DNA of 62,871 bases, filler included. It is 6 parts of 6 records of this genome, joined end to end, with 100 filler letters (N's around TTAATTAATTAA, not from the genome) between each part and the next. Parts side by side here need not be neighbours in the genome. Positions count along the whole stretch, not along the records: positions 54,715 to 59,643 come from SRR20825010_2643; 5 more parts are not named here. The stretch is one strand, 5' to 3'. Both the position numbers and the translations under genes were made by a program. This document shows positions 1,668 to 59,743 of this stretch, one piece after another (positions within the stretch are counted from its first letter, which is position 1; each line of letters starts with the position of its first letter). The notes under the pieces were generated by a model that saw nothing but the letters and a program-made list of their open reading frames with translations, was not told where the DNA came from and did no database searches.

Positions 1668-3284
1668 ATGTCTTGGAATTTCGGCGACATTCTCGACGCC
1701 ATCTCGCCCGTACTCGACCAGAATGCGCCCGCCTTGGTGCATGGCACGCGCAAGATCACGTGGGGCGACTTCACCAAACGCAGCAACAACATTGCCCGCG
1801 GTCTCATCGAACGCGGCGCGAAACCGGACGACAAACTCGCCTTCTACATGCGCAATCGCCCCGAATATATGGAGCTTCTCGCTGCCGGCTTTAAAGCGCG
1901 CATGACCCACGTCAATGTGAACTATCGCTACAAGGCAGACGAAGTCTTTTACATCTTCGACAATTCCGATGCGCACACCGTTGCCTATGGTTCAGAGTTC
2001 CGCGACATCATCGCCGAAATCCGTCCACGCCTGACAAAGGTCAAAACCTTTCTCGAAATCAATGACGGCGGCGAGATCGCCGACTTTGCCGAACGCTATG
2101 AAGACCTCGCGACAACAGGCAATGGCGCAAATCTTGACATCAAACGCTCGCCCGACGATCAGCTCTTCATCTATACCGGCGGCACAACCGGCATGCCCAA
2201 AGGCGTGATGTGGCGTCACGACGATCTGCGCGAAGTGCAGCTCTCAGCCTTGCGTCGTCTCGGCCCCGTGCCCGAAGACTTGCCGTCGCTCATCGCGGCA
2301 ATCAAGGAAGTCGGCAACGCCGCGCCTATGATCCCCGCCTGCCCGCTCATGCATGGCACAGGTCTTCTAACCGCCCTCGGCAACATCATGTCGGGCGGTT
2401 GCATCGTCACACTCGACAGCGTGTCACTCGATCCCGACGAACTCTGGAAAGCCGTTGACGCCAACAAAGTCGCGCAGGTTGCTATTGTCGGCGATGCATT
2501 TGCAAAGCCCATGCTGCGCACATTGCGTGAAGCCCCCAAAGGCACATACGACCTGTCTTCCATAGTCACGCTCATCTCCTCGGGCGTCATGTGGTCCACG
2601 GAAGTCAAACGCGGCCTTCTGGAATATATGCCCGAAGCCATCATGACTGACAGCTTCGGCGCATCCGAAGCTGTGGGTCTCGGCTCATCGCTCATGACCA
2701 AAGACGGCGAGATCGCCACGGCCAAATTCCAGATCGGCGAACGCTGCAAAGTCTTTGACGAAAACGACGAACCCGTCGTTCCCGGTTCCGGCAAGCCGGG
2801 CTTCATCGCCCTCGGTGCGCCCATTCCTGTTGGCTATTACAAAGATGCAGAGAAAAGCGCCAAGACATTCAAGACAGTGCGCGGCGAACGCTACTCGATC
2901 CCCGGCGACTGGTGCACCGTGGAAGAAGACGGCACACTCACACTTCTGGGACGCGGTTCTGCCTGCATCAACACAGCAGGCGAGAAAGTCTATCCCGAAG
3001 AAATCGAAGAAGCGCTCAAGACACATCCTTCCGTTGAGGACGCACTTGTCGTCGGTCTGCCAGACGAGAAATGGGGCCAGTCTGTCACGGGCGTCATCAA
3101 GCTCGCACCCGGCGCCAAGTTCAACGAAGAAGAACTACGCGCCCATGTCCGAGGCCAGCTTGCCGGCTACAAAACACCCAAGCGCATTCTGATGGGAGCT
3201 GCCGTAGCTTTCCGCGCTGCAAACGGCAAAGCCGACTACAAAACCGTTACAGCTTTTGCCAAAGACGAACTCGACGTCGCATAG
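1668..3284 (+). CDS. Acyl-CoA synthetase (FadD19-like AMP-binding enzyme)
   Basis: YTGGTTGMPKG, FGASE, GRGSACINTAGEKVYPEEIE, YKTPK motifs. Confidence 0.93.
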   Translation: MSWNFGDILDAISPVLDQNAPALVHGTRKITWGDFTKRSNNIARGLIERGAKPDDKLAFYMRNRPEYMELLAAGFKARMTHVNVNYRYKADEVFYIFDNSDAHTVAYGSEFRDIIAEIRPRLTKVKTFLEINDGGEIADFAERYEDLATTGNGANLDIKRSPDDQLFIYTGGTTGMPKGVMWRHDDLREVQLSALRRLGPVPEDLPSLIAAIKEVGNAAPMIPACPLMHGTGLLTALGNIMSGGCIVTLDSVSLDPDELWKAVDANKVAQVAIVGDAFAKPMLRTLREAPKGTYDLSSIVTLISSGVMWSTEVKRGLLEYMPEAIMTDSFGASEAVGLGSSLMTKDGEIATAKFQIGERCKVFDENDEPVVPGSGKPGFIALGAPIPVGYYKDAEKSAKTFKTVRGERYSIPGDWCTVEEDGTLTLLGRGSACINTAGEKVYPEEIEEALKTHPSVEDALVVGLPDEKWGQSVTGVIKLAPGAKFNEEELRAHVRGQLAGYKTPKRILMGAAVAFRAANGKADYKTVTAFAKDELDVA

Positions 3285-3317
3285 AGCTTTCGACACCCTT
3301 TCATTGCTCCAAATCTG

Positions 3318-3353
3318 TTCAGCCGCATGTGCCGTAACGCACATGCGGCTGAA
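3318..3353. repeat. Perfect 15-bp intergenic hairpin (terminator or mRNA-stabilising stem)
   Basis: TTCAGCCGCATGTGC-CGTAAC-GCACATGCGGCTGAA; no clear U-tract. Confidence 0.6.
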
Positions 3354-3433
3354 TCTTGAGCATTGGCCAAGGCTGACATGACTGTTATCCTCCGGCCCAA
3401 AGAATTCACCCATCATCAAACGGGAAAAAACAC

Positions 3434-4624
3434 ATGGAACCCTTAGAGAAGTTCCGCCAGGAAACGCGCGAATGGCTTGAGGCAAACTGCCCTGCCTCAA
3501 TGCGAACACCCATGGCAAACGAAGACGAAACCGTCTGGGGCGGCCGCAAGGCAAAATACGAAAACCCGGAAGCCAAGCTCTGGCTCGACCGCATGGGCGA
3601 AAAAGGCTGGACCGCCCCCACATGGCCCAAGGCCTATGGCGGCGGCGGACTGAACAAGCAAGAGGCCCAGGTTCTCGCGCAGGAAATGCGCCGCATTAAA
3701 GCCCGCTCGCCTTTGTCGAGCTTTGGCATCTGGATGCTTGGGCCCGCCCTTCTCGAATATGCATCGGAAGAGCAAAAGCAAAAATTCCTGCCCCCCATCG
3801 TGCGCGGCGAAATCCGCTGGTGTCAGGGCTATTCCGAACCGGGTGCCGGTTCCGACCTTGCAGGTCTCCAGACCAAAGCCGAAGACAAGGGCGATCACTA
3901 TCTCGTCAACGGTCAGAAAATCTGGACTTCCTACGCAGATAAGGCCGACTGGATTTTCTGCCTCGTGCGCACCGATACATCCAAAAAGCATGACGGCATT
4001 TCCTTCCTGCTTTTCGACATGGCCAGCCCCGGTGTGGAAGCTCGCCCCATTTCAATGATCTCGGGCGCCTCGCCCTTCTGCGAAACTTTCTTCACAGACG
4101 TCAAAGTCCCCAAAGAAAATCTCGTCGGCGAGTTGAACAAAGGCTGGACGATTGCCAAACGCCTTCTCCAGCACGAACGCGACATGATTTCCGGCATGGG
4201 CCTCGGCTCCGGTGTCGGCTCCAGCGCCAGTCTTGAAAGCCTCGCCAAAGATTATTTCGGTGAAAGCAATGGCAAGGTCGCCAGCGCTGCTCTGCGTGAA
4301 CATATCGTGCAACAGAAAATGGACGGCAAAGCCTTTGCCCTCACCCTCCAACGCACCGCCGAAGAAGCCAAAGCCGGTCAGGGCATGGGTGCGGCCTCTT
4401 CGATCTTCAAATATTACGGCACGGAACTGAACAAGCGTCGCTACGAACTGATGCTCGAAATTCTCGGCACACAGGGCCTGGGCTGGGAAGGTGAAGGTTT
4501 CACCGATCAGGAAATCGGCGTCACACGTTCATGGCTGCGCTCCAAAGGCAACTCCATCGAAGGCGGCACATCCGAAGTGCAGCTCAATGTGGTCGCCAAG
4601 CGCGTACTCAACCTGCCCGATTAA
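3434..4624 (+). CDS. Acyl-CoA dehydrogenase
   Basis: WCQGYSEPGAGSDLAGL, NGQKIWTS, SIEGGTSEVQ motifs. Confidence 0.95.
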   Translation: MEPLEKFRQETREWLEANCPASMRTPMANEDETVWGGRKAKYENPEAKLWLDRMGEKGWTAPTWPKAYGGGGLNKQEAQVLAQEMRRIKARSPLSSFGIWMLGPALLEYASEEQKQKFLPPIVRGEIRWCQGYSEPGAGSDLAGLQTKAEDKGDHYLVNGQKIWTSYADKADWIFCLVRTDTSKKHDGISFLLFDMASPGVEARPISMISGASPFCETFFTDVKVPKENLVGELNKGWTIAKRLLQHERDMISGMGLGSGVGSSASLESLAKDYFGESNGKVASAALREHIVQQKMDGKAFALTLQRTAEEAKAGQGMGAASSIFKYYGTELNKRRYELMLEILGTQGLGWEGEGFTDQEIGVTRSWLRSKGNSIEGGTSEVQLNVVAKRVLNLPD

Positions 4625-54614: not shown

Positions 54615-54714
54615 NNNNNNNNNNNNNNNNNNNNNNNNNNNNNNNNNNNNNNNNNNNNTTAATTAATTAANNNNNNNNNNNNNNNNNNNNNNNNNNNNNN
54701 NNNNNNNNNNNNNN
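54615..54714. other. Artificial contig spacer
   Basis: N44-TTAATTAATTAA-N44. Confidence 0.99.
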
Positions 54715-57083: not shown

Positions 57084-57899
57084 TTAACGTTTTCTTGCTG
57101 AATCTTTCAATGCAGCCAGTACTTTAAGCCCATCACACAAAGGCGCTGGCTCATGCGTGCGGATATAGTCGGCACCAGCCTGACTTGCCGCCAGTTCTGC
57201 GGCAAGTGTGGCCGCCCCCGCCTCGCCCGGACCACGCCCCACAGCCGCTCGCAAAAACGACTTGCGGGAGACAGACAGCAGCACAGGCAGGCCGAAACGG
57301 GTCTTCAATTCACCAAAACGGGCCAAGGCAGCGAAAGATGTTTCAGGCGCTGAACCGAGAAAGAACCCCATGCCGGGATCGAGCACAATCCGCTCGCGTG
57401 CCACACCGGCCTCTGTAAGCGCCGCAATTCGCCGCTCAAAGAACTCTGCTATATGCGAAATGATATCGCCAGCCGGTGCCTCGCGACGATCCGCCTGACC
57501 GTCCTGAATGGAGTGCATGACAACAAGACGGGCATCGGACGCAGCCAACGCGCCATAAAGCGCGCGATCAGGAAAGCCGCGAATGTCATTGAGATAGGCG
57601 ACACCACGTGACAGGGCATAGGCCTGCGTCTCGCGCTGGTAGCTATCAACGGAAACCGCGATGCCGTCGCCATGCAGCGCATCAAGCACAGGTGCGATCC
57701 GTGCAATCTCGGTGGCCGGACTGACGGGCGCGGCATCGGGATTGGACGATGCGGGCCCCAGATCGATAACATCTGCCCCCTCCGCCACCAGTTTACGAGC
57801 ATGAGCAACCGCAGCATCGGGCGCAAGATAGCGCCCGCCATCGGAAAAACTATCCGACGTAATATTGACGATTCCGAAGATTATAGGTGCGCTGCTCAT
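57084..57899 (-). CDS. folP: Dihydropteroate synthase of the Sul clade (Sul2-like), 271 aa
   Basis: GIVNITSDSFSDGG, LGPASSNPDA, DPGMGFFLG, SVSRKSF, IRTHEP; alternative ATG at 57905. Confidence 0.96.
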   Translation of the reverse strand: MSSAPIIFGIVNITSDSFSDGGRYLAPDAAVAHARKLVAEGADVIDLGPASSNPDAAPVSPATEIARIAPVLDALHGDGIAVSVDSYQRETQAYALSRGVAYLNDIRGFPDRALYGALAASDARLVVMHSIQDGQADRREAPAGDIISHIAEFFERRIAALTEAGVARERIVLDPGMGFFLGSAPETSFAALARFGELKTRFGLPVLLSVSRKSFLRAAVGRGPGEAGAATLAAELAASQAGADYIRTHEPAPLCDGLKVLAALKDSARKR

Positions 57900-57946
57900 A
57901 GCCATTTTCTAGCATGAAAAACGTACGGCCACATATGGCTACAGGC

Positions 57947-58561
57947 TCAAAACCCCTGCCCCATGATCATGTTGACGAGCTGTTCGAGATAAATATCGAA
58001 CTCTTTTCTCGCCACACCCGAAAAATGCATCAGCGCCACGGTGTGCCCGCCACCGATAAAGAGACGCGCGGCCGACATTGTGTCGAGACTGGCGGGGATC
58101 ACCCCTTCGCGCTTTCCGCGCTGTAAAAGCCGATGGGCCACATCAACGAAACCATTATTCAAAGCGGCATAGCGCGGCCAGACATCGGCACGCACACCAG
58201 TGCTCCAGTCGAGCCAAACCTTGATAAGGTCCGGCTGCTCGCTCGACATATTGGTGAAGCGCCCGGCGAGATTTTCCAGACAATCGCGCACAGGCGCATT
58301 CTGGGTCAGAAGGCCTTGCACGTTCTCGCTGAGCTGCAATTCGACTTCATCGAGAACGGCTGTCACCAGATCTTCCCGTGTACGGAAATAGGAATGCACA
58401 GCCGAGACGGAAATGCCAGCACGCTCGGCCACATGGCTATGGGTAGCGCGCGCCAGCCCATTTTCGGCGCAGGCGGAAATGGCACAAGCAACGAGTTGCG
58501 CCCGTCGCTCGACAGGCGACAGGCGGGTGCGTTTGGATCTGGTAGCGACAACAGGAGACAA
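57947..58561 (-). CDS. TetR-family regulator resembling Vibrio SmcR/HapR/LuxR
   Basis: RTRLSP..RR.QL, HSHVAERAGISVSAVHSYFRTREDLV..VL, KVWLDWST.VR.DVWP; GAGGGG RBS before TTG. Confidence 0.9.
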   Translation of the reverse strand: MSPVVATRSKRTRLSPVERRAQLVACAISACAENGLARATHSHVAERAGISVSAVHSYFRTREDLVTAVLDEVELQLSENVQGLLTQNAPVRDCLENLAGRFTNMSSEQPDLIKVWLDWSTGVRADVWPRYAALNNGFVDVAHRLLQRGKREGVIPASLDTMSAARLFIGGGHTVALMHFSGVARKEFDIYLEQLVNMIMGQGF

Positions 58562-58661
58562 AATGGCCCCTCAAACAATGGAATCACACGAACCCGAACT
58601 ATAACGGCTTCAAACAAGTATACTGAGCAGTTGCAGCACAAATCAGGCCAAAATTTCTAGG

Positions 58662-58710
58662 TTGACTTCGCGGCACCTTCTTATTGATACTTTACTCAAT
58701 AAGAAGGTGC
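58662..58710 (+). promoter_or_regulatory. CYP153 promoter with 15-bp perfect inverted repeat operator
   Basis: TTGACT at 58662; GCACCTTCTTATTGA (58673-58687), 8-nt spacer, TCAATAAGAAGGTGC (58696-58710). Confidence 0.8.
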
Positions 58711-58727
58711 AATCCGTGGAGGGAACA

Positions 58728-59643
58728 ATGAGCGTAGCGACGCTGGAAGCAACGACTGCTGATTCCATGCCGATCGATCAAATCGACGTGAGCAATCCCG
58801 AACTTTTCCTGAACGATACGGTAGGCGAATATTTCACTCGCCTGCGTCGCGACGATCCGGTGCATTACTGCAAAGACAGCGCCTACGGACCTTATTGGTC
58901 GATCACCAAGTATCAAGACATCATGGCGGTCGACACGAACCATAAAGTCTTCTCGTCGGAAGCCGGTGTCGGCGGCATCATCATTGATGATAATAACGTA
59001 CGCAGCGAAGGCCTGCCCTTGCGCAGCTTCATCACGATGGATCCGCCAGATCACGATGCGCAGCGCAAGACGGTGAGCCCGATTGTGGCGCCCGCCAATC
59101 TGATGGTGCTGGAAAAAACAATCCGCGAGCGGATGCAGAATATTCTCGATCGTCTGCCAGTCGGCGAAACATTCGACTGGGTGGACAATGTCTCCATCGA
59201 ACTCACAACCCAGATGCTGGCAACGCTGTTCGACTTCCCCTTCGAGGAACGCCGCAAGCTGACACGCTGGTCCGATGTGACAACAGCCGAACCCGGCAGC
59301 GGCATTATCGACAGCTGGGAACAGCGCGCCAAAGAGCTACAGGAATGTGCGGCATCCTTCATGACGCTGTGGAACCAGCGTGTGAATGCAAAAGAACCCG
59401 GCAACGATCTGATCTCGATGCTCGCCCATTCGCCAGCAACACGAAACATGCCGCCGGAAGAATTCCTCGGCAATATTCTACTGCTGATCGTCGGTGGCAA
59501 TGACACGACACGCAATTCGATGACAGGCAGCGTGCTGGCGCTGAACCGCTTCCCCAAAGAATTCGAGAAGCTGAAAGCCAATCACGCGCTCATCGACACG
59601 ATGGTGCCGGAAGTCATCCGCTGGCAGACACCGCTTGCCCATA
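58728..59643 (+). CDS. Cytochrome P450, CYP153 family (alkane omega-hydroxylase), 3'-truncated
   Basis: IDVSNPELF, GPYWSITKY, SIELTTQMLATLFDFP, LLIVGGNDTTRNSM, EVIRWQTPLAH. Confidence 0.95.
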
Positions 59644-59743
59644 NNNNNNNNNNNNNNNNNNNNNNNNNNNNNNNNNNNNNNNNNNNNTTAATTAATTAAN
59701 NNNNNNNNNNNNNNNNNNNNNNNNNNNNNNNNNNNNNNNNNNN
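59644..59743. other. Artificial contig spacer
   Basis: N44-TTAATTAATTAA-N44. Confidence 0.99.

Follow-up and report, generated by a model that had tools for sequence, protein, structure and literature searches.

A HapR-like TetR protein and a conserved 22-bp palindrome as a predicted local repressor system of a CYP153 alkane hydroxylase operon

What might a TetR-family regulator that resembles the quorum-sensing master regulators of Vibrio be doing in front of a CYP153-type cytochrome P450 alkane hydroxylase gene? This question is raised by a locus in a stretch of DNA of 62,871 nucleotides (nt), called the window here, which is a chain of contigs whose joints are runs of N around ttaattaattaa linkers. 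The locus sits on the contig at 54715-59643, flanked by the N runs 54615-54714 and 59644-59743. The regulator, a protein of 204 amino acids with a TTG start, is encoded on the minus strand at 57947..58561, was recognised as an open reading frame (ORF) with a TetR_N match and is assigned to a CYP153-linked, HapR-like subfamily. The intergenic region between it and the divergent P450 gene (58562..58727, 166 bp), read from the sequence, has the same arrangement in relatives. The answer reached here is that the protein quite probably represses the CYP153 operon locally until an effector releases it, using a LuxR-type DNA-reading module on a 22-bp palindrome.

The predicted operator core O1 (TTATTGATACTTTACTCAATAA, 58681..58702, 22 bp) has 0 mismatches to TTATTGA-N8-TCAATAA and is the sole such match in the 62,871 bases; at <=3 mismatches, the whole stretch holds 2 matches against 1.45 expected. 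In the orientation of the regulator gene its sequence is TTATTGAGTAAAGTATCAATAA, the same as that found in the related locus L025. The original prediction had described a perfect inverted repeat around a core that agrees with the SmcR consensus, and both observations proved correct. The repeat (58673..58710) consists of 15-nt arms at 58673-58687 and 58696-58710 with an 8-nt centre, and a hand count of the core against the consensus TTATTGATWWRWTWNTNAATAA, as printed in PMC2859563 (which, like PMC8034623 and PMC8784404, is cited from excerpts of its text), gives 20/22 positions in either orientation. With the motif obtained by chromatin immunoprecipitation sequencing (ChIP-seq) for V. alginolyticus LuxR, TTATTGATAAATTTATCAATAA, which has a 9-4-9 layout (PMC8034623), the core shares 18/22 positions.

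The palindrome is conserved and cannot be put down to chance. At least one spacer site at <=3 mismatches was found in 50/51 loci with a divergent CYP153 gene, the spacer without one being that of L053, and at <=2 mismatches a spacer site is present in 43/51. At the latter threshold, 55 sites fall in the 9,321 nt of spacers versus 0 in the remaining 393,973 nt of these loci. The 32 distinct first sites carry 1.1-2.0 bits at positions 2-10 and 14-21 and give the consensus yTATTGAGTAwwnTATCAATAr. Conservation across relatives is limited to the 22-bp core, the 15-nt arms being peculiar to the window: among 51 aligned sites, the palindrome extends past the core by 0 nt in 39, by 1 nt in 8 and by 2, 3 and 4 nt in one each, against 8 nt in the window. 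Judged from this alignment, the long arms are a local peculiarity and not a functional unit. Two or more sites are present in 32/51 loci, where the second mostly starts exactly 22 nt after the first. In the window, no second operator is found 22 nt further on; all that is left there is AGTCAA, which corresponds on the opposite strand to the -35 match. Where relatives have a second operator, its outer half (GAGTCAATAT) includes, read along the P450 strand, the hexamer TTGACT. This hexamer is still present in the window, but the remainder of the second site is lost, and the extension of the first palindrome takes its place.

The original prediction also called the protein a LuxR/HapR-like TetR, and this was upheld, these regulators being closest by PDB sequence search, NCBIfam and Foldseek. 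Pfam reports TetR_N (PF00440) alone, at 32.9 bits versus a cut-off of 24. In the PDB sequence search, the top 18 distinct chains are all LuxR/HapR/SmcR/OpaR (80-90 bits, E-values from 1.4e-24 to 1.8e-21), and the 19th match is MbdR with 36.5 bits; FadR scores 35.7 bits. The three sequence patterns named in the original prediction (RTRLSP..R..QL; H..AE.A.(I/V)SV..V..YF.TREDLV..VL; KVW.(D/E)WS...R..VWP) were seen in the alignments with OpaR, LuxR and HapR chains. An AlphaFold2 model built on 30 relatives is predicted with a mean local distance difference test score (pLDDT) of 92.6 and shows nine helices in the all-helical two-domain TetR fold. When this predicted model was searched with Foldseek, ranks 1-42 among the matches listed are LuxR/HapR/SmcR, with template modelling (TM) scores of 0.72-0.84 by query length, with Bacillus FadR, DarR and further TetR proteins ranking below them. 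Among the NCBIfam models, quorum_TF_HapR (NF040929) scores best, with BetI next at 52 bits, and the Joint Genome Institute (JGI) pipeline labels many of the relatives ‘hemagglutinin/protease transcriptional regulator’.

The expectation that the protein would group inside the SmcR/HapR clade was not borne out by a hidden Markov model (HMM) search and phylogeny, an outcome that the original prediction had itself named as counting against it. Its score on NF040929 is 96.7 bits versus a cut-off of 350, and Vibrio-type proteins score about 302-434 bits. Over 401 Pseudomonadota genomes, the same model yields six proteins above the cut-off (368-434 bits) plus two below it, with 302.6 and 98.8 bits, and none further at E <= 1e-15; the 98.8-bit match is the Parvibaculum relative used as centre. 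Two trees were made, using FastTree (181 rows, seven outgroup TetR proteins) and the ‘quick’ setting of IQ-TREE (75 rows, five outgroup TetR proteins), in which the outgroups are unrelated TetR proteins from the relatives' genomes, and from which rows covering less than query positions 20-165 and the duplicates L071-L073 were left out. The HapR-like superfamily separates from the outgroup with a support of 92 in FastTree and 98 in IQ-TREE (branch length 1.0). The Vibrio-type proteins form a single clade in both trees (support 100) with a long stem of 1.1-1.3, nested among Agarivorans and metagenome proteins (support 97, IQ-TREE). In both trees the window protein lies outside that clade and adjoins L003 and L001 (Parvibaculaceae, support 96-98), within a clade of 72 rows in FastTree (support 96) and 25 rows in IQ-TREE (support 90); the backbone that joins this clade, the Vibrio-type group and the others is not resolved by either tree. 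Given the score below the cut-off and the different clade in both trees, the window protein is assigned by sequence to a cousin subfamily of LuxR/HapR rather than to the family itself. With LuxR/HapR/SmcR/OpaR/LitR of the Vibrionaceae it shares the TetR fold, the closest structures, the N-terminal R-x-R-L-x-P arm, H39 (SmcR numbering), the KVW.(D/E)WS...R..VWP helix and the 22-bp operator type with TTATTGA half-sites 8 bp apart. It differs in its identity to a Vibrio-type protein of about 26% (53/202 aligned positions) and in genomic position, as the window and its relatives have folP-tetR-CYP153, whereas the Vibrio-type gene is divergent from an hpt-like phosphoribosyltransferase gene. Another apparent difference is the large regulon in Vibrio versus the few genomic sites, exact or with one mismatch, in the relatives of the window.

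The two groups also share the module that would read the DNA. As described in PMC8034623 (2021), Arg9 and Arg11 of the LuxR arm touch T2, A3 and T4 in the minor groove, a contact that, among TetR-family proteins, is said there to be found in LuxR proteins alone. R9, R11 and H39 of SmcR correspond to R11, R13 and H41 of the window protein (arm KRTRLSP), of which R13 and H41 are invariant in 49/49 CYP153-linked rows and R11 is kept in 43/49. R13 is also conserved at >=90% over a 52-row superfamily alignment, and the operator positions T2/A3/T4 carry 1.4-2.0 bits in the sites of relatives. Though called unique to LuxR proteins, the arginine arm and its T-A-T target are conserved well outside the Vibrionaceae. 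In the loci of seven Vibrio-type genes, no site at <=3 mismatches was found upstream of the gene itself (L085 has two elsewhere), and the Vibrio motif therefore rests here on PMC2859563 and PMC8034623.

Next to the regulator lies the P450 gene, of which the N-terminal 305 codons are present (58728..59643, plus strand) before the contig end truncates it. This fragment matches CYP153A7 (3rwl) with 500.5 bits over residues 10-304, and other CYP153 structures with 250-400 bits. Pfam p450 gives no match to the fragment, whose haem-binding C-terminal part lies past the contig end; full-length relatives do match. A word-indexed search for relatives of the regulator returned 291 proteins at E <= 1e-5, and the 120 matches listed are 50-96% identical, with Parvibaculum, Rhodobiaceae, Afipia, Nevskia and Rhizobiales among the named sources. 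When 50%-identity representatives were searched exhaustively, 3,025 matches reached E <= 0.001, of which 201 had <= 1e-10 and 25 had <= 1e-30. The superfamily is rare among reference genomes: a 52-member profile matches 9/401 Alphaproteobacteria and 2/400 Gammaproteobacteria (E <= 1e-25, with centres and known carriers counted). The CYP153-linked clade takes in Parvibaculaceae, Sphingomonadales, Zavarzinia, Acidocella, Nevskia and others.

Synteny was surveyed at 70 loci from a scan of species-representative genomes. A divergent upstream CYP153 gene is present at 51/70, and 50 of these loci have 133-203 nt between the two genes; in L003 the gap is 741 nt, with a 2Fe-2S ferredoxin gene in between. 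This conserved arrangement fits the local role at the CYP153 promoter that had been predicted. In L043, the CYP153 gene lies downstream and convergent, and two sites precede that gene. Ten Sphingomonadales loci have a divergent gene for a PF10118 ‘predicted metal-dependent hydrolase’ without CYP153, the regulators of L047 and L048 lie after a UDP-glucose dehydrogenase gene, the neighbour context of L049 and L069 was not assignable, and the upstream DNA of L046, L052, L063 and L067 is too short to judge. The PF10118 loci are L042, L045, L050, L055-L060 and L064 (gene at about 2950-3930 in 8.5-kb loci; 181-188 bits in the four tested). Their spacers hold at least one TTATTGA-type site in 8/10 loci, and in six a pair about 24 nt apart.

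Several Parvibaculum loci read folP, tetR and then, divergently, CYP153, ferredoxin, CYP153, ferredoxin. Such tandem CYP153-ferredoxin pairs behind the operator were seen in L002 (781-3834) and also in L005, L009, L019, L024, L025 and L028. In nine Parvibaculum-type loci, the window P450 is 90-92% identical to the farther CYP153 copy and 70-75% to the nearer one. The window P450 resembles the distal copy, and its arrangement therefore differs, with a ‘distal-type’ P450 directly at the operator. The window has the clade placement, the adjacent CYP153 gene and the yTATTGAGTAwwnTATCAATAr-type spacer site by which the subfamily is defined.

Whether such a regulator acts locally or globally was addressed in three complete or near-complete genomes of relatives. 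NF040929 finds one strong protein in each (98.8, 93.7 and 84 bits), the rest scoring <=33 bits. Exact matches to TATTGA-N8-TCAATA are nearly absent outside the locus: genome G001 (3.1 Mb) has two, both in the tetR-CYP153 spacer, and G002 (4.8 Mb) has one, also in the spacer. By sequence, these counts agree with a regulator that acts locally and has, at most, a small additional regulon.

Based on these data, a mechanism can be proposed. A dimer of the TetR protein would read the palindrome at 58681-58702 with the same module as Vibrio LuxR/HapR, its helix-turn-helix entering the major groove and its Arg-x-Arg arm contacting the outer T-A-T of both half-sites from the minor groove. A sigma-70-like scan of 58480-58800 gave one match, against 0.3 expected from shuffles, on the plus strand in front of the CYP153 gene (58662..58691; TTGACT, 18 nt, GATACT; a consensus match only). 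Its -35 hexamer (58662-58667) lies just outside the operator core, and its -10 hexamer GATACT (58686-58691) falls inside it, as had been predicted. In relatives, the TTGACT of the second site was seen by eye to lie 17-19 nt from TGATAT, GATATA or ATATAT. The P450 start codon follows O1 by 26 nt (23-65 nt in relatives except L003), and a likely ribosome-binding site, GGAGGG, was read at 58718..58723 on the plus strand, 4 nt ahead of the ATG. As the site lies this close to the CYP153 start and over the sole -10 match, bound protein should block transcription; the dimer would occlude the promoter or the transcript start, and the P450 operon would stay silent until a hydrophobic effector (an alkane, 1-alkanol, fatty acid or acyl-CoA, i.e. 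a substrate or product of the pathway) frees the DNA.

Several observations weigh against this repressor reading. The recognition helix differs from that of SmcR at F54H and N55S, which may be connected with the G found at position 8 in the left half-site. The window has a single site where many relatives have two. In G003, the exact pattern is absent and the site at its own locus has mismatches, and one-mismatch sites number 4, 2 and 5 in G001, G002 and G003 versus 1, 0 and 0 for a reversed control pattern, so that a small wider regulon is possible. One variant with one mismatch, TATTGACA-N4-TGTCAGTA, is common to the unrelated genomes G001 (G001:C1:1285240-1285259) and G003 (G003:C2:3265781-3265800), away from the CYP153 locus, and could be a further target or be read by a different regulator. 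The promoter scan that gave one match in the window gave none in L009 or L040, so the geometry of operator and promoter is one that we infer, and no tetR promoter was found by the scan of 58480-58800. Finally, LuxR/HapR proteins both activate and repress, and homology therefore gives no sign of regulation.

This last point leads to the reading in which the same site is bound and the CYP153 promoter is activated, or activated as well as repressed, as LuxR/HapR proteins do at many Vibrio promoters. We consider it unlikely. It could draw on the dual role of LuxR/HapR (PMC8034623), on L009 and L040, where the lack of a promoter match leaves the true geometry not fixed, and on the tandem sites of many relatives, as activated genes of V. 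alginolyticus have more sites (median 3 vs 1.6; PMC8034623). According to the same source, however, the promoters repressed by V. alginolyticus LuxR carry palindromic sites, and the near-symmetric type, to which the window site belongs, is tied to repression and tighter binding. The position of the site relative to the start codon and over the sole -10 match also leaves no room for a downstream promoter. That another factor reads the 22-bp element, with the adjacent TetR protein acting elsewhere, is very unlikely: the one-mismatch sites elsewhere in the relatives' genomes would suit it, but the element tracks the regulator and not the P450, since the Sphingomonadales PF10118 branch without CYP153 keeps similar paired sites ahead of the TetR gene and the divergent PF10118 gene, and the element is also retained in distant members whose neighbours are genes for acyl-CoA dehydrogenase or di-iron monooxygenase. 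Moreover, the half-site is the same as that in the solved LuxR-DNA complex (PMC8034623).

The palindrome could also act as a nucleic-acid hairpin, either an RNA leader or a DNA cruciform, instead of a protein site. Folded as RNA, the region with its 15-nt arms reaches -26.5 kcal/mol (z = -6.67), and 0/200 shuffles are as stable. The 8 extra paired bases occur in the window only, however, with no flanking complementarity in 39/51 aligned sites and 4 nt as the next largest extension; within the core, just 4-10 of the 11 positions pair, and the conserved letters stay the same without co-varying. The promoter and terminator scan at the window found no terminator-like site and no T run after the palindrome, and a transcript from the predicted -10 would begin inside the right arm. 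Despite the stable local fold, a hairpin or terminator was rejected on the unconserved arms and the missing T run, and a role of this kind is highly improbable. Least credible, to the point of being negligible, is that the protein is genuinely orthologous to the LuxR/HapR master regulators of quorum sensing, acting as a global regulator in an alphaproteobacterium. The best NCBIfam model, the JGI naming, the arm and the common operator type would speak for it, but the score of the protein is far below the cut-off, the 401 Pseudomonadota genomes yield matches at 302-434 or at 98.8 bits with none between (E <= 1e-15), the clade is separate in two trees, folP-tetR-CYP153 is not the hpt-luxR position, and the exact sites of G001 and G002 are confined to their own locus.

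The original prediction had suggested that the locus might reveal the kind of ligand bound by the Vibrio regulators, and this part is weak. Of the 18 putative pocket residues of SmcR given in PMC2859563, 5 are kept in the window protein (W, S, N133, A163 and F166) and 3 in the subfamily majority (W114, S118 and A163, with F129Y and F166Y/F). In the subfamily, several polar or aromatic positions of SmcR have turned aliphatic, with F75L, F115L, N133L, N136L and H167L/I/V, along with C170G. According to a 2026 paper, LuxR/HapR proteins have no known native ligand. By analogy, an alkane, alkanol, fatty acid or acyl-CoA would be a natural effector candidate, as fatty acyl chains are bound by the closest relatives of known ligand. 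The next Foldseek neighbour after LuxR/HapR is FadR, solved with stearoyl-CoA (3whc), and for AlkX, the Dietzia TetR regulator of alkW1, C10-C24 fatty acids are listed as effectors (PMC8784404). AlkX and FadR/YsiA of Bacillus are alike in outline, as TetR repressors of alkane or fatty-acid oxidation that are released by fatty acids or acyl-CoA. They differ in being remote relatives (the FadR score is given above) with other operators and gene arrangements, alkX lying downstream in the alkW1 operon. CypR of Alcanivorax and Dietzia is likewise a divergent local regulator of a CYP153 operon, but it belongs to another protein family, AraC/XylS, and is an activator (PMC8784404). In the excerpts of this 2022 review of alkane-monooxygenase regulators, the AraC-type CypR is given for CYP153 and the TetR protein AlkX for alkW1 only, and no TetR protein is listed as a CYP153 regulator. 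A literature search, with subscription journals and supplements outside its scope, found HapR-type proteins nowhere linked to CYP153 or alkane hydroxylases.

Ten more distant superfamily members, 28-38% identical to the window protein, were examined as well. A site at <=2 mismatches lies no more than about 150 nt ahead of the regulator gene in L087, L089, L094, L095 and L098, and in L100 such a site precedes a P450 gene that lies before the regulator; no upstream site at <=2 mismatches was found in L092, L093, L096 or L101. The neighbours include acyl-CoA dehydrogenases (L094, L095), a flavin amine oxidase-like gene (L093), a subunit of a methane/phenol/alkene-type di-iron hydroxylase (L098) and a P450 (L100). 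In L087 (2294-3496) and L089 (97-1299), proteins of 400 amino acids without a Pfam match are encoded divergently from the regulator, with operator-like sites in the spacer. The gammaproteobacterial genome G896 has three superfamily paralogues (L098, L100 and L101), one of them divergent from the di-iron hydroxylase subunit with three operator-like sites, and one directly after the P450 gene.

Nearer to Vibrio, 84/401 sampled genomes of the Vibrio-type order have one protein each related to Agarivorans P0176, with identities to P0176 that fall stepwise (92-100, 75, 63-65, 49-54 and 44-47%); those of known Vibrio-type genomes are 38-48%. Three of the non-Vibrio genes scored 143-150 bits on NF040929. 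The genes in L103 (1498-2115) and L113 (1489-2109) are divergent from a phosphoribosyltransferase gene, like the Vibrio-type gene in L082, and their downstream neighbours differ (Mur ligase vs pyridine-nucleotide disulphide oxidoreductase). From their sequence and position, the HapR-like genes of L102-L115 are probably positional orthologues of luxR/hapR that score below the curated cut-off. Such hpt-linked genes share the superfamily and HapR as best NCBIfam model with the window protein, but are nearer to the Vibrio clade, have a divergent phosphoribosyltransferase neighbour and showed no upstream site at <=3 mismatches. The P0176-type genes would bear more directly on the origin of luxR/hapR than the CYP153-linked clade, which is a cousin and not a stem group.

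The suggestion that the locus points to the ancestry of the Vibrio regulators hence stands in part: the DNA-reading module and the operator type are common to both, but closer, phosphoribosyltransferase-linked relatives exist outside Vibrio. As a tentative and rather doubtful scenario, the LuxR-type DNA-reading module, with its Arg-x-Arg arm and a helix-turn-helix for TTATTGA half-sites 8 bp apart, may be the ancestral property of a superfamily, rare yet widespread, whose members control hydrocarbon and lipid oxidation genes locally (those for CYP153, other P450s, di-iron monooxygenase and acyl-CoA dehydrogenase). The master regulators of quorum sensing would then have branched off and evolved fast, retaining the DNA code but giving up local control, and the Vibrio pocket would descend from one for aliphatic-chain metabolites.

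As for the remaining context, a pterin-binding, folP-like enzyme is encoded downstream of tetR on the minus strand (57084..57905; Pfam Pterin_bind, 214.8 bits), as it is in L002 and L003. In the window, a phosphoglucosamine-mutase-like gene also lies downstream of the regulator. After 59643, aminotransferase-like and prephenate-dehydratase-like ORFs were seen on another contig with a similar G+C content (0.51-0.59).

The protein and its operator are predicted to form an uncharacterised and very well conserved switch of alkane oxidation in marine and soil Alphaproteobacteria, and the pair is a candidate part for hydrocarbon biosensors. Relatives in so obvious a metabolic context also offer a way to ask what LuxR/HapR-type pockets bind, though the pocket is poorly conserved. 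Should the tentative scenario of descent be true, the DNA-reading module would not be a Vibrio invention, and the tractable CYP153-linked cousins could reveal the class of compound that the ancestral pocket held.

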